Assembly (NCBI GenBank): GCA_013151865.1
Contig: JAADHN010000141.1
Location: 7,812-71,811, forward strand
Direction of reading: 5' to 3'
Length of the DNA: 64,000 nt
From: Kiritimatiellota bacterium
GTDB lineage: Bacteria > Verrucomicrobiota > Lentisphaeria > Oligosphaerales > JAADHN01
Shown here: in pieces, positions 44,232 through 54,099 of the stretch
Position numbering within the stretch: the stretch's first letter is position 1
How the letters are laid out: every line of letters starts with the position of its first letter
The notes under the pieces: generated by a model
The model's database searches: none
Seen by the model: only the letters and a program-made list of their open reading frames with translations
Told to the model about the DNA's origin: nothing
Position numbers and translations under genes: made by a program

Positions 44232-45789
44232 ATGAGCAGTCCCGGACACATCAGCGTTCACGAGTCTCTCTGCATCGAGGACTCGCCTCCGCCGTGCGGA
44301 ATTGTCATCTTCGGAGCTTCTGGCGACCTTGCCCACCGGAAACTGATACCGTCGTTATTCAGCCTCTTTCGGCGCGAACTGTTGCCGTCCGAGTTTTTTG
44401 TGTTGGGGGCGGCTCGCAGTCCGTTGACGCCGAATGGGTTTCGGGACCGGGTCGCCTCCGAATTGAAGCAGTTCTTTCCGGACGCTCCCAGCCGGCAAAC
44501 GACGACCTTTGCAGGGCGGCTTGATTACCTTTCCGGGGACTATGTGGACCCGGATTTCATTGAGGCGTTGGCCGCCAGGCTCGGGGTCTTGGACGGGCGG
44601 TACGGCACTGATGGGAACGTGGTTTTTTATCTCTCGGTTCCGCCTTTCCTCTACGCCGACGTGGTGGCCAACATCGCCCGGCGCGGGCTCGTGAGTTCGG
44701 GGGCGGGTGCGGCAGCCGGCTGGCGGCGTGTGGTTGTCGAGAAGCCTTTCGGTCGCGACCTCGGGAGTGCCATGGCTCTCGACGAAGCGCTTGGCCGCCA
44801 CCTGACCGAGGAACAGATTTACCGGATCGACCACTATCTCGGCAAAGAGACCGTGCAGAACATCCTGATGCTGCGTTTTGCCAACGCCGTTTTCGAGCCG
44901 ATCTGGAACCGGAGATACGTGGACCACGTGGAGATCACTGCTGCGGAGTCCGTCGGGGTCGAGCGCCGGGCCGGTTATTACGAGTCGGCCGGCTGTCTCC
45001 GGGATATGTTTCAGGAACCATATGCTCCAGCTCCTGACGCTTGTGGCCATGGAACCGCCCACATCCTTCGATGCCGACCGCATCCGGGACGAGAAGGGCA
45101 AGTTGCTGCGGGCGGTGCGTCCATTCGACCCTGAGTCAGTCCGCCGCCGGGCCGTGCGGGGTCAATACGCGGCGGGTGAGATCGAAGGTACGTCCGTGAA
45201 GGGGTACCGGGAGGAGACAGGCGTCGACCCCGAATCCACCACCGAGACGTACGCGGCGCTGCGGCTGGCGATCGATAATTGGCGTTGGCAGGGCGTCCCG
45301 TTTTACCTGCGTTCCGGCAAGCGACTCAAGCGGCGAGTCACGGAGATCGCCATCACATTCCGGAACGTCCCTCATTCCATTTTTCGGCCGTTGCGGCCCG
45401 AGGACCTCCCGCCGAACCTGCTGGTGCTCAACGTGCAGCCGGAGGAAGGCATTTCACTGCGAATTCAGGCCAAACGTCCCGGCCCCAAGCTGTGCATGGG
45501 ACGGCTCACGATGGAGTTCCGCTATCGAGAAGTTTTTGGGGCCGCTCCCCCCGAGGCCTACGAGCGACTGCTGCTGGACTGCATGCTGGGCGACCAGACC
45601 CTGTTCGCCCGACACGACAACATCCGGTTGGCCTGGTCGCTTCTGGCGCCGATCCTCGATGAGTGGCAGGGGCGGGAGACGGCTTCCTCCGGTCCGTCGG
45701 CGTTGCGGCTGTATCCTGCAGGGAGCTGGGGGCCGACCGCCGCGGACGCGCTTCCCGGGACGGATGGGGTCCAGTGGCGGACGCCGTAA
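44232..45789 (+). pseudogene. zwf: Glucose-6-phosphate 1-dehydrogenase with a +1 frameshift at about 45015
   Basis: [31 protein letters not shown]; the conserved RDMFQNHMLQ is split (atg ttt cag G aac cat atg); then NWRWQGVPFYLRSGK and AYERLLLD. Confidence 0.9.
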
Positions 45790-49190: not shown

Positions 49191-51956
49191 TTATTCTCCG
49201 AGCTTCTCCTCGGCCACGGCCTGGGCCGCGGCAAGCCGTGCAATCGGCACTCTGTACGGAGAGCAGCTCACATAGTCCAACCCGATCCGGTGGCAGAACT
49301 TGACCGACTCGGGTTCGCCGCCGTGCTCACCGCAGATGCCGACTTTGAGGTTCGGGCAGGTCTTGCGCCCCAACTCGACCCCCATTTGGACCAGCTTGCC
49401 CACGCCTTCCTGATCGAGCACCTGGAACGGGTCTTTTTCGTAGATGCCCATTTTGACATACTCGCCCAGGAACTTCCCGGCGTCGTCCCGGCTGAAACCG
49501 CAGCCCATCTGGGTCAAGTCGTTCGTGCCGAAACTGAAGAACTCCGCGTACTCGGCGATCCGGTCGGCGGTGATTGCGGCCCGAGGGATCTCGATCATGG
49601 TCCCGATTTTGTACGGGATCTCATCCTTGTCCACGCTCTGCTCCTCGAACACCTTTTGAATGACCTGTTCGGCGCGTTCCCGCGAGATCTTCAGTTCCTC
49701 GGCCTTGCCCACCAGCGGGATCATGATTTCGGGTTCCACGTCGACGCCGCTTCGCTTGACATTGACGGCGGCCTCGATGATGGCCCGAACCTGCATGTCG
49801 GAAACTTCCGGATAGGTGAGACCGAGACGGCACCCCCGGTGTCCGAGCATGGGATTGAATTCGTGCAGCGCCTCGACAGTCGCCCTGATCGTTTCCACCG
49901 GCACTTCCATGGTCTCGGCCATTTCCTGCTGCCCCGCCTCGTCATGCGGCAAGAATTCGTGCAGGGGCGGGTCCAGGAGGCGGATAGTGCAGGGGCGCCC
50001 GTCGAGCGCGCGGAAAATGCCCTCGAAATCCTGACGCTGCAGCGGCAGGAGTTCGGAAAGGGCTTGGTTGTACTGGGTGAGGACGTCCTGGTTCTGTTCC
50101 CGGATCGCCGCGGCTTCCTTTTCGTCCTCGACGGCGGCGATCCGGTTCTTGACCTCCTTGACTTTTTCGGCCACCAGAATCAAGCGGCGGAAGCTGACGA
50201 TGCGGTCGCCTTCGAAGAACATGTGTTCAGTACGAGTCAGGCCGATGCCCTCGGCCCCGAATCCGACGGCGACTTCGGTATCCTGGGGTGTATCGCTGTT
50301 TGTTCGCACTCCCAGTCGCCGGTACTTGTCCGCCAGTTCCATGAGCTTTCCGAACGGTCCGGTCAGTTTCGCATCGACCGTAGGCAGTTTGCCCAGGTAC
50401 ACCGCGCCGGTGGAGCCGTTCAGGCTGATCCAGTCCCCCTTCTTGACCACGACGTCACCGGCGCGGAATTCGCCTTTGCCGTAGTCCATCGCGATGCCGC
50501 CCGCACCAGCCACGCAGCACTTGCCCCAGCCGCGGGCCACCACGGCTGCATGCGAGGTCATGCCGCCGCGCGCTGTCAGGATGCCTTCGGCCGCGTGCAT
50601 GCCGCCCACATCTTCCGGGCTGGTCTCGATACGACAAAGGATAACGGGTTCCCCGCGGGCGTTCCATTCTTCGGCTTCCTCGGCCGTGAACACCACTTGA
50701 CCGGAGGCCGCTCCGGGACTGGCCGGCAATCCTTGGGCGATCACGTCCACGGTTTTTTCCGCCTCCGGGTCGAACCTGGGGTGAAGGAGCTGATCGAGGT
50801 CGTTCGGGGGCACGCGGAGCAAGGCTTCCGGCTCGGTAATCAGTCCTTCGGCCAGCATATCCACGGCGATTCGGACGGCGGCCTGGCCGGTGCGTTTCCC
50901 TGTCCGCGTTTGGAGCATGAACAGTTTTTTCTGCTCGATGGTGAACTCGATGTCCTGCATGTCCCGGTAGTGTTCCTCAAGCCGTTTACGAATTCCGAGG
51001 AGTTCCTCGTAGGCTTCCGGGAGCAGATCGTTGAGCCGCTCGATCGGTTCCGGGGTCCGAATACCGGCGACCACGTCTTCGCCCTGGGCGTTCATCAGGA
51101 ATTCGCCGAAGAACCTGTTCTCGCCCGTACCCGGGTGCCGCGTGAACGCCACTCCGGTCCCGCAGTCGGCGCCCATATTGCCGAAGACCATGGTCTGGAC
51201 GTTTACGGCCGTCCCGATCAGGTTGCGGATTTCATTGATCTCCCGGTATCGAACGGCACGCGGGTTGTTCCATGAACCGAACACCGCGGCGATCCCGCGC
51301 CAGAGCTGGTCTTTCGGATCCTGCGGGAAGTCGTGCCCGGTGTATTCTTTGTAAGTTGCCTTGCACGCTTCCACCACTTCGGCCATTTCCTCGGCCGTGA
51401 GGTCCGTATCGAGTCCGCGACCGTACTTCTCCTTGACTTCGTCCATGGCCCGGTGCAGCGGGTTGTACTCGTGTCCGGATTCGTCTTCGGCCCGGATGCC
51501 CATAACCACGTCGCCGAACATCTGGATAAACCGCCGGTAGGCGTCTAAAGCAAACCTGCGGTTGCCGGTCAATCCCGCCAGCGCTTCGAGCGTCTCGTCA
51601 TTCAAGCCCAAGTTCAGGACCGTGTCCATCATTCCCGGCATCGACACCGCCGCTCCGGAGCGCACCGAGACCAGCAGGGGGTTCGGCCCCTTTCCGAACG
51701 TTTTCCCCGTCAGCTCCTCAAGGCGCGTCAAGTTCGTTTCGACTTCCGGGCGAAGGAGTTCAAACAGCTTTTCCTCGCTCAGATCGTAATACGCTTTGCA
51801 CGCCTCCGTCGAGATCGTAAAACCGGGAGGGACCGGTATGCCGATGGACGCCATCTCGGCCAGGTTTGCGCCTTTGCCGCCCAGCAGCGGCTTCATCGAA
51901 GTGTTGCCTTCCGCAGAACCGCCGCCAAAGAAATACACGAATTTTGTGCCTGCCAT
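49191..51956 (-). CDS. ppdK: Pyruvate, phosphate dikinase
   Basis: LLGGKGANLAEM, LLVSVRSGAAVSMPGMMDTVLNLG, GGMTSHAAVVARG, EFNPMLGHRGCR, FSFGTNDLTQ, GICGEHGG. Confidence 0.97.
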   Translation of the reverse strand: MAGTKFVYFFGGGSAEGNTSMKPLLGGKGANLAEMASIGIPVPPGFTISTEACKAYYDLSEEKLFELLRPEVETNLTRLEELTGKTFGKGPNPLLVSVRSGAAVSMPGMMDTVLNLGLNDETLEALAGLTGNRRFALDAYRRFIQMFGDVVMGIRAEDESGHEYNPLHRAMDEVKEKYGRGLDTDLTAEEMAEVVEACKATYKEYTGHDFPQDPKDQLWRGIAAVFGSWNNPRAVRYREINEIRNLIGTAVNVQTMVFGNMGADCGTGVAFTRHPGTGENRFFGEFLMNAQGEDVVAGIRTPEPIERLNDLLPEAYEELLGIRKRLEEHYRDMQDIEFTIEQKKLFMLQTRTGKRTGQAAVRIAVDMLAEGLITEPEALLRVPPNDLDQLLHPRFDPEAEKTVDVIAQGLPASPGAASGQVVFTAEEAEEWNARGEPVILCRIETSPEDVGGMHAAEGILTARGGMTSHAAVVARGWGKCCVAGAGGIAMDYGKGEFRAGDVVVKKGDWISLNGSTGAVYLGKLPTVDAKLTGPFGKLMELADKYRRLGVRTNSDTPQDTEVAVGFGAEGIGLTRTEHMFFEGDRIVSFRRLILVAEKVKEVKNRIAAVEDEKEAAAIREQNQDVLTQYNQALSELLPLQRQDFEGIFRALDGRPCTIRLLDPPLHEFLPHDEAGQQEMAETMEVPVETIRATVEALHEFNPMLGHRGCRLGLTYPEVSDMQVRAIIEAAVNVKRSGVDVEPEIMIPLVGKAEELKISRERAEQVIQKVFEEQSVDKDEIPYKIGTMIEIPRAAITADRIAEYAEFFSFGTNDLTQMGCGFSRDDAGKFLGEYVKMGIYEKDPFQVLDQEGVGKLVQMGVELGRKTCPNLKVGICGEHGGEPESVKFCHRIGLDYVSCSPYRVPIARLAAAQAVAEEKLGE

Positions 51957-52253
51957 TTTTGTTTTCCTTGTGTTGATTCGGCCGAAGGGATACCCCAAAA
52001 AAGCGTGATCGGCCGTTTTCGCGCGATGATCGACGGCGGGTGTTCGGACGCACGGCCCCGCTTCGACCTTTCTCGACCCCGATGTCGCCACGGACCGTCT
52101 CGGATTTGCCCGGACGATACCATGGAGGCTCGGAATTCGGCTGCGTCACCGACGATTCCGAAACAATCGGCAACCGTGCCGTTCCGGGAGAGGACGGTGC
52201 TCGGTTGAGCGGGGTCCGCGAGGCATCGCGACACCGGTTGCACCGGCGGTTAA

Positions 52254-52428
52254 CCTGAACTATTTACGTGCCACCCGCACCGCGCCCTGCACGACGTGCG
52301 GCGGCGAAGCGCATGGCCGCTCTTCCGGCGCAAGCGCCGGGAAACGAGTTTTGTCGCAGCATCGTCCGCAACCGTTTTCCGTCCAGTGTGAATCGACACA
52401 ATACTGTCGACTTCATGAACAGTTCAGG
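52254..52428. mobile_element. MITE with IS1380-like terminal inverted repeats, copy 2 (inverted relative to copy 1)
   Basis: TIRs cctgaactatttacg / catgaacagttcagg; flanks ttaa and ttag (possible 4-bp target duplication). Confidence 0.75.
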
Positions 52429-52527
52429 TTAGTGTCGGCGAACCTTTTCCCGAACCTGAGCTTTGCGCCGCTCGACATATCGCTTGCGTCGCCGCCGTTT
52501 TTCCCGCTTGTTGTACTGCTTGCCCAA
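52429..52527 (-). CDS. 32-aa extremely basic small protein
   Basis: AGGAGAG RBS, TTG start; MGKQYNKREKRRRRKRYVERRKAQVREKVRRH*; below the ORF-track size cut-off. Confidence 0.7.
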   Translation of the reverse strand: MGKQYNKREKRRRRKRYVERRKAQVREKVRRH

Positions 52528-53088
52528 TATTGCTCTCCTGCTTGACACCGTGTGCCTCGAAAGCGTCCGAACGGTCTTGCCGGGGTTGTGTGCCCGGCCT
52601 GTGTCACAGCCGCTTTCGGGACAATCGGCAACGACTCAATGAAAGACCAAGACCCCGCCGTGCGCGGCCGGGGCCTGAAACGCGAACACTGCCGGAATAT
52701 AACCGCTGGCGCGAGGTTGTCGAGGGCAGGGTCGGCGATTGCACGAGCTGAACCGGGACCGGAGGGCCGTTCCTTGCATTGGGGCGTGTTCGGGATATGG
52801 TCTGCCGCTTTCCATGTGCCTGTCCGGTCTTTGACGGGCTGCTTCCGTTGTTGCGCGCGGTCCGTCCGCCGTCCGATTCCCTCGGTCGGCGCCGACCACC
52901 CGAGTATATTTGTGACACCGTAGATGCAAGGCGGTTCCGTGTGTTCTTCTTGCGAGTGAGATGGAGTGAGGAAGCTCTCTCTTGGGGCTGGTTGAACGCC
53001 GGGTCGCTGGCAACAATCGGCAGGGCAGCACGCAACATGCTGCCCCCGCAAGATCGAACGCCCGGACAATTCCGGGACGCTCCGCATC

Positions 53089-54099
53089 ATGCAATCTGTC
53101 GACCCACATGAAAAGGCCTCCACCGTTCCCGGTCCGGCCCGACCGCGATCATGGCGTCGGCGCGTCCGTTTTGCCGCGCTCTGTCTGCTCGGTGCGGTTC
53201 TGGCGCTGATGCTCGCGATTCAAGCGGTGAAGTGGCACATGGATCGCCACTTCTACGACGACTACGACCCCGACCTGCCGTGCGAACTTCGCATCCGCGC
53301 CCGGGAAACGCGGCCTGCCTATCGTCGGATCGACTTCACGTTTGTCGGTGTAAAGAACACCTCCGTTCCGGCGCTTTTGGCCCTGCCGCGCCTTGAGCGG
53401 CCGCCGCCTTATCCGTGCATCGTTTTCCTGCATGGGATCGGCCAGAAAAAGGAATTCCTCGACGTGATCGCGTCCCGGTTCACCGAGCGGGGGTTCGCCA
53501 TGACCTGTTTCGACCAGTACACCCGCGGCGAGCGTCGGTTGCCCCGAGACACACCGTACGCCGAGCAGGCTCGGGCGTTCCGGCGGCGGGCCGCCCTGAC
53601 CGTGATCGAAACCCGCCGTCTGGTGGATAGTCTTCGGGACAGGGACGACATCGACCCGCGGCGTTTCTATCTGGTTGGGGCGAGCTATGGCGCCATTACG
53701 GGCGCAGTGGCCGCCGCGTTCGACTCGCGGTTTCGCGCCGTGGTCCTGTGTTACGGCGGCGGCAGTTTTCGGAAGCTCTTGCCGAGTCGGGAGGCCAGAA
53801 GAGTCCTCGGCGCGGCGGCCGTTCCCGTGGCCTGGCTCGGGGCGTGGTGGTTGGCCCCGGCCGACCCCGTACGCTACGTGGGGCGGATTGCGCCCCGGCC
53901 GATCCTGTTCCAGAACGGCAGGCACGATGGGTTGATTCCGACGGAAGCCGCTCGGGCGCTGTACGATGCGGCTCGTCTCCCCAAATCAATCACCTGGTAC
54001 GATTCGGACCATGTCGGACTCGACCGCGAACACACGGTGCGTGTTCTTCAGGAAGTGGCTCGATGGCTTCTCGAGCAGGACGCACCCTTCAGGCAATGA
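53089..54099 (+). CDS. Membrane-anchored alpha/beta hydrolase (esterase)
   Basis: N-terminal TM; FLHGIG, GASYG nucleophile elbow, GRHDGLIP, DSDH. Confidence 0.85.
   Translation: MQSVDPHEKASTVPGPARPRSWRRRVRFAALCLLGAVLALMLAIQAVKWHMDRHFYDDYDPDLPCELRIRARETRPAYRRIDFTFVGVKNTSVPALLALPRLERPPPYPCIVFLHGIGQKKEFLDVIASRFTERGFAMTCFDQYTRGERRLPRDTPYAEQARAFRRRAALTVIETRRLVDSLRDRDDIDPRRFYLVGASYGAITGAVAAAFDSRFRAVVLCYGGGSFRKLLPSREARRVLGAAAVPVAWLGAWWLAPADPVRYVGRIAPRPILFQNGRHDGLIPTEAARALYDAARLPKSITWYDSDHVGLDREHTVRVLQEVARWLLEQDAPFRQ

Follow-up and report, generated by a model that had tools for sequence, protein, structure and literature searches.

Family X, a widespread family of tiny basic helical proteins in Verrucomicrobiota and a candidate for an unnamed ribosomal protein

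Introduction

Does a 32-codon, unannotated reading frame in a Kiritimatiellota bacterium encode a protein, and if so, to which cellular machinery might that protein belong? The question arises from a locus in a stretch of 64,000 nucleotides of contig JAADHN010000141.1, which is called the window here. A first-pass annotation of this DNA had described an Arg/Lys-rich reading frame with a ribosome-binding site, a candidate promoter and a MITE next to its stop codon, had compared the product with the small ribosomal proteins bS22/mS38, bTHX and eL41, and had read it as a lineage-specific ribosomal or nucleoid protein. It had named a homologue search across relatives and a dN/dS measurement as checks, and a lack of homologues with codon-level conservation as the outcome that would speak against the claim. 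We refer to the protein and its homologues as family X.

Results

The reading frame is a gene under purifying selection

The following features of the window are used below.

52429..52527, minus strand: gene of the 32-aa Arg/Lys-rich helical protein (family X), with a TTG start and a TAA stop.
52533..52539, minus strand: Shine-Dalgarno (SD) site AGGAGAG, 5 nt before the TTG, read from the sequence.
52696..52723, minus strand: predicted sigma-70-type promoter TCGACA-N16-TATATT, giving a leader of about 160 nt here and of 40-105 nt in relatives.
52251..52431, no strand: MITE-like repeat of 181 bp bounded by 14-nt inverted repeats, one of which overlaps the stop codon, from the sequence and genome comparison.
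49191..51956, minus strand: ppdK (pyruvate phosphate dikinase), the downstream neighbour in the organism's own order only; the start at 51956 is inferred from relatives.

Translation bore out the frame as first described, from its TTG to its TAA: 17 of the 32 residues are Lys (6) or Arg (11), that is, 53%. An in-frame GTG at 52548 would lengthen the protein to 39 aa and is a possible start, but the homologues begin at the TTG column, with 172 ATG, 2 TTG and 2 GTG starts among 176. A search of the order with the single protein matched 47 of 61 genomes at E<=1, and all 30 order-level loci that were fetched carry a reading frame with a common start column and a stop after 30-35 codons. Among 176 distinct homologous coding sequences, in-frame stops were absent, versus 26-139 in the five other frames, and column entropy was highest at third codon positions (1.63 vs 1.07 and 0.95). 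The proposed dN/dS measurement, made on 42 disjoint pairs, gave 0.14 in frame, while three control frames gave 1.5-2.0. Homologues with codon-level conservation thus exist, and the reading frame is a real gene under purifying selection. For an Akkermansia-type homologue, all four RNA runs examined (of 23 listed) cover the gene as contigs, and in one run a 393-nt contig covers just the gene and its leader; the contigs carry neither level nor strand information, two of the runs look like DNA, and these contigs are not counted as support.

The MITE was found next to the TAA as described, its terminal repeat overlapping the stop codon. The inverted repeats of this element lie at 52251-52264 and 52418-52431, with TA at both ends, and the element folds strongly (z -5.1). 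Partial copies of it, 73-94% identical, recur at about 30 further sites in the genome; three copies, of 181, 279 and 354 bp, keep both terminal repeats. The element is a local insertion which is no part of family X and leaves the protein length normal. A short motif around ACAATCGGCA occurs three times in the intergenic DNA that flanks the gene on either side (52141-52174, 52599-52632 and 53012-53022 of the window) and is possibly a regulator site or another repeat. At 44232-45789 of the window, a glucose-6-phosphate dehydrogenase-like gene appears to be divided between two frames of 300 aa and 303 aa that overlap; judged by the translations alone, this suggests a frameshift near 45000-45100.

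Family X has its own conserved promoter in Lentisphaeria

The AGGAGAG claimed as a ribosome-binding site is present at 52539-52533, and an SD-like 4-mer stands upstream of 49 of 50 homologues from the same class. The candidate promoter TCGACA-N16-TATATT also held up, being the sole such site in 51900-53200, where 0.1 is expected from shuffled sequences. Sigma-70-type promoters were found within 200 nt upstream at 24 of 28 order-level loci (2.6 expected), at 20 of 27 loci elsewhere in the class (5.9 expected) and at 11 of 45 loci in other Verrucomicrobiota (1.9 expected). Family X has its own conserved promoter in Lentisphaeria; in the second phylum described below, such sites occur at chance level (6 of 28 loci, 5.3 expected). 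Conserved structure was sought in the leader and none was found (z -1.5).

Some members without an SD site (L433-L453, L173-L180) show a TGCTACA/GCTATA-like -10 box about 15-20 nt before the ATG, so near to it as to point to very short leaders; 19 of 99 SD-less loci have a -10-like box in that bin. Tails longer than 40 aa were found in 48 of the 95 members that lack an SD-like site and in 2 of the 95 that have one, a comparison confounded by lineage: the association of tail length with SD absence tracks lineage and is no independent test.

Family X occurs in most of Verrucomicrobiota and in a second phylum

The organism falls in the class Lentisphaeria of Verrucomicrobiota, since proteins of two genomes of its order are also encoded, unchanged, by two records named Lentisphaerae. 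A profile of 74 sequences was run on a sample of 301 Verrucomicrobiota genomes at least 90% complete. At E<=0.2 it matched 231 of them, nearly all once; of 18 lower-scoring or weak matches that were inspected, 16 were true and 2 false. The 231 also contain one more match that is likely false and some 18 further weak ones outside the inspected set. A broader profile, applied to 80 genomes (70 negatives and 10 weak), yielded 15 more true members. The total comes to about 243 of the 301 genomes and 96 of 100 in the organism's own class, and Akkermansia is among the carriers; in another family sample, family X was present in 14 of 14 genomes. It was not found in about a fifth of the 301-genome sample. 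In family f27 it was found in 0 of 21 genomes, inspected weak matches there having proved false, and it was not found in two Verrucomicrobiota genomes of 0.9 Mb.

Family X also occurs in a second phylum (the Calditrichia/KSB1-type phylum, that of genome G349), where 29 of 61 genomes gave a match below E 1e-4; a close homologue is labelled Calditrichia. In a tree built from uL18, uS5, uL30, uL15 and SecY for 58 of these 61 genomes, one long, fully supported branch splits the genomes, and family X is present in 29 of 31 on one side of it and in 0 of 27 on the other. The distribution is known for the two phyla sampled, Verrucomicrobiota and the Calditrichia/KSB1-type phylum. The proposed homologue search has found members to be widespread and well outside the organism's own lineage, reaching into the Calditrichia/KSB1-type phylum.

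A single-sequence phmmer search over 1.84 billion representatives gave no match, the query being too short and biased, and profile searches retrieved 575 and 143 proteins. Among the matches listed, all are unnamed or 'hypothetical' bar one unrelated label, and one source labels the Akkermansia member 'Histone'. Apparent fusions of family X in family f46 turned out to be the C-terminus of Ffh. Searches of Pfam, NCBIfam, PDB, Rfam and plasmids returned no meaningful match, and a search of the openly accessible literature returned no description of the family. The gene had been called unannotated; Pfam and NCBIfam give no match, and sources name its members 'hypothetical protein'. Family X is likely a new, unnamed protein family of a kind already known, the tiny lineage-specific ribosomal-like proteins.

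A conserved N-terminal core is followed by an optional tail

Alignments of family X are free of gaps. Among 88 non-redundant members, K10 is invariant and R20 (98%), R14 (95%), Q4 (93%), R13 (88%; 88 to 95% across sets) and Y17 (75%) are conserved to different degrees. AlphaFold2 predicts one helix, residues 7-31, with a mean pLDDT of 88, in agreement with the single helix that had been thought probable. On a helical wheel of this predicted helix, K10, R13, Y17, R20 and R24 lie between 200 and 280 degrees, an arc of 80 degrees. The conserved core comprises residues 1-24, and the chain is free beyond residue 25: lengths range from 29 to about 200 residues, many Verrucomicrobiia members have long K/A/P-rich tails, and the tail is optional, 125 of 176 members having 40 aa or fewer.

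Family X is a stand-alone gene

The genes next to family X were compared at 139 loci. They include ppdK (42), NYN_YacP (23) and lpxA (21); another 93 neighbours belong to dozens of families unrelated to one another. At the 42 ppdK loci, nearly all from the organism's own order, ppdK lies directly downstream on the same strand; other orders of the class have lpxA, dapA, ispF or other genes at that position, neighbours in the second phylum are unrelated, and no neighbour is common to the loci across classes. Because the neighbours vary, ppdK is only a clade-level neighbour. None of the loci examined places family X in an r-protein operon. Genes related to translation (tsf, rimO-like, spoU, obg, ffh and yacP) do occur next to it, amid many unrelated ones. 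The NYN_YacP gene also follows family X at L150, L153 and L171, but of five X-positive genomes tested, two, each a single contig, yielded no NYN_YacP, and in the other three it is located away from family X; it is therefore no obligatory partner. Family X is a stand-alone gene.

Known small ribosomal proteins do not account for family X

None of the three proteins with which the product had been compared is family X: the genome has a separate bS22, bTHX is unmatched, and no PDB chain, eL41 included, matched. The likeness to bS22/mS38 (PF08213) lies in a length of about 30 aa, a highly basic composition, a helical form and a gene that gene callers miss, but profile similarity between the two is no better than with shuffles. 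Identity with bS22 was rejected on the lack of a Pfam match and on the following gene, found on another contig of the same genome.

G000:C40:4614-4694, minus strand: bS22, 29 aa, locus L306, PF08213 over cut-off.

In the order, bS22 is found in 55 of 61 genomes at E<=1, 30 of them over cut-off, and genes similar to L306 also occur in two Verrucomicrobiia; the accessible part of one report lists bS22 only for mycobacteria, Bacteroidetes and Borrelia, and states that the Borrelia protein went unannotated until cryo-EM (10.1101/2023.04.16.537070). The organism's genome also has bS21.

Family X and bTHX (PF17070) share an MGK start, a length of about 30 aa and a patchy distribution, but the Gly-Asp and Gly-Lys-Ile pattern of bTHX is missing from family X and an anchored comparison gave a z of 0.5. 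Identity with bTHX was rejected, a PF17070 match with the Gly-rich pattern being absent. No bTHX exceeded the cut-off in any of the 301 Verrucomicrobiota genomes, while bTHX genes of 30-37 aa were found in 13 of 61 second-phylum genomes (L192, L193, L296-L305), where they are confined to the branch without family X (12 of its 27 genomes on the tree). Co-occurrence was not seen: none of the 29 X-positive second-phylum genomes has a credible bTHX, nor do the two coincide in Verrucomicrobiota. Displacement of bTHX by family X was nevertheless rejected. The exclusion reduces to one deep split in the tree, and the prediction of bTHX in X-negative Verrucomicrobiota failed.

Two further candidates were set aside. 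No uL30 over cut-off was found in the 301 Verrucomicrobiota genomes, and in the organism's own genome uS5 adjoins uL15 with uL30 missing between them (G000:C138, about 30300); uL30 is present in 61 of 61 second-phylum genomes, where family X also occurs, so family X is no simple uL30 stand-in. An ESM Atlas lead linking family X to DUF6800 scored 0.87-0.88, and the family model (PF20607) had no match over cut-off in five genomes, two of them X-positive. Like family X, bL38 of Bacteroidota and bL37 of mycobacteria are small and lineage-restricted. The accessible accounts of bL38 have it first found by cryo-EM and place its gene in a bL28-bL33 operon, whereas family X lies in no such operon.

Family X resembles cyanobacterial bS24 in anatomy

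The protein bS24/cS24 (Ssr3189, Asl3888; COG5794, PF30515) was named in the Synechocystis ribosome in 2026; in the accessible part of that report, its N-terminus forms a single helix next to the anti-Shine-Dalgarno, at the junction between head and body of the 30S subunit, and its unconserved tail is not resolved (10.64898/2026.07.03.736309). According to the accessible part of a second report, bS24 binds RNA, has its first 23 residues conserved, is encoded outside r-protein operons with variable synteny, was found in 67 of the 75 reference genomes and can be deleted without loss of viability; the same text reports homologues to be absent from bacteria outside cyanobacteria (PMC13640635), the protein being reported only from cyanobacteria and algae. 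A Nostoc member was grouped with 30S proteins, as given in the accessible part of PMC11797042. Family X and bS24 are alike in having a conserved basic N-terminal helix (about 23 residues from Met1 in bS24, predicted in family X) followed by an unconserved tail, and in being stand-alone genes whose synteny varies and which most genomes of their phylum, though not every one, carry.

For sequence comparison, bS24 members were taken from a metagenome motif scan in which 106 of 117 loci were full-length; the identity of this set rests on K9/R14/N15/R20, length and cyanobacterial names, including that of an 88-aa Trichormus azollae protein. A Met-anchored, one-gap comparison of family X with bS24 gave a z of 2.8 (8 of 1500 shuffles), in a test chosen after a local one had failed, with four families compared and three matching positions fixed by the scan motif. 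In that comparison bS22 gave 0.6, bTHX 0.5 and the two X subfamilies, the positive control, 8.9. With the enlarged family X set, z was 2.0-2.3 (29-39 of 1500) and the register was unchanged; overall, bS22 and bTHX gave 0.5-0.8. The register pairs K3/K3, N6/N6, K7/K8, E9/E10, K10/K11, R13/R14 and Y17/Y18 (X/bS24). By contrast, the near-invariant Q4 and R14 of family X face R4 and N15 of bS24, and the invariant K9 of bS24 faces a variable column; of the bS24 invariants K9/R14/N15, R14 pairs with R13 of family X, and K9 and N15 are not kept. The tails differ too, being often acidic or Gly-rich in the fetched bS24 members and K/A-rich or absent in family X.

The local composition-matched profile score was z -1.2, HMM cross-scores between the two families were no better than shuffles, hhalign gave a probability of 2.8% (P 0.016; 0.3% for the Calditrichia-type subfamily), and a bS24 profile search of the organism's genome did not find the family X gene. 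Sequence support for kinship is weak. Family X matches bS24 in anatomy, and membership of bS24 is not established because K9 and N15 are not kept. When the bS24 profile was run against PDB, the best matches were plant eL29 chains (positions 11-27, E 0.1-0.8, non-significant).

Discussion

The reading that we favour, by analogy, is that family X is probably an unnamed lineage-specific ribosomal protein that binds the ribosome: as far as the accessible reports on bS22 and bS24 go, bacterial stand-alone basic helices of 30-50 residues that are spread patchily over a phylum in this way have turned out more than once to be ribosomal. That the spacing is fixed and residues are invariant in both phyla argues for a shaped binding site, and the charge of the protein suggests that its partner is RNA. 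That partner would be a structured RNA with a conserved pocket, presumably rRNA, and the predicted helix would be laid into a fixed groove of it. The most likely subunit would be the small one, as with cyanobacterial bS24, and the site may be the 30S head-body junction near the anti-Shine-Dalgarno, where the protein might adjust subunit stability or initiation, and some lineages could do without it. About half of the weight that we give to a ribosomal protein goes to a bS24 homologue at the bS24 site, which on its own we hold only tentatively. That family X is the non-cyanobacterial counterpart of bS24 is accordingly a possible but doubtful proposal. It would imply, with the same hesitation, a single ancient protein of the 30S platform that survives patchily in cyanobacteria, in Verrucomicrobiota and in the Calditrichia/KSB1-type lineage, and such a history, which we think somewhat unlikely, would run against the published cyanobacterial origin of bS24.

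A basic, one-faced predicted helix would suit any RNA groove, and family X might instead bind another conserved RNA or RNA-protein machine, such as RNA polymerase, SRP, RNase P, tmRNA or the ribosome-associated nuclease Rae1/YacP, and not be a stoichiometric ribosomal protein. The NYN_YacP gene that follows it at 23 loci, and at the three others named above, would fit the last of these, but its absence from two of the five X-positive genomes, its separate position in the other three and the lack of any neighbour common to the classes speak against it, and we regard another RNA machine as an unlikely partner overall. PVC bacteria have condensed nucleoids and basic histone-like proteins, and a histone-like or protamine-like nucleoid protein condensing DNA by charge would accord with the 53% K/R, with the long K/A/P-rich tails of many Verrucomicrobiia members and with the 'Histone' label in Akkermansia. 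Yet the tail, K/A-rich where present, is optional, and Q4, K10, R14 and R20 are kept in exact spacing across two phyla; non-specific charge neutralisation needs no fixed positions, so that of the first-pass proposal the ribosomal part remains, by inference, the best reading and the nucleoid part has become improbable.

Length and charge would also admit an ancient bS22 paralogue or a bTHX replacement in one of those pockets. An ESM Atlas cluster in which 26% of the members are PF08213 proteins scores 0.82-0.88, taken here as a lead only, and family X and bTHX never co-occur; set against this are the separate bS22 of the organism, found also at E<=1 in 55 of 61 relatives, profile comparisons with both proteins that do no better than shuffles, and an exclusion that amounts to a single deep split, with X-negative Verrucomicrobiota also lacking bTHX. 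We give such an origin a slim chance. Slimmer still is that of a leader peptide or small regulator of pyruvate phosphate dikinase, as the same-strand position directly upstream of ppdK at 42 loci might suggest: synteny largely refutes it, for the protein is equally conserved where lpxA, dapA, ispF or the unrelated genes of the second phylum stand in that place, and the leader has no conserved structure.

If family X is indeed ribosomal, inventories would lack a near-universal ribosome component of an entire phylum, one to which the gut symbiont Akkermansia belongs. The accessible part of a 2023 survey places the Verrucomicrobiota ribosome among ten priority structures to solve (PMC10039652), and family X provides a named sequence to look for in its map. 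The link to bS24, if true, would mean that a protein first described in 2026 ranges more widely than cyanobacteria. Were family X the counterpart of bS24, its lysine-rich tail would have grown in lineages with an SD-less gene, which may offer a handle on the evolution of SD-independent initiation. Even if it is not ribosomal, family X is a core gene with a profile ready and hosts that can be cultivated.
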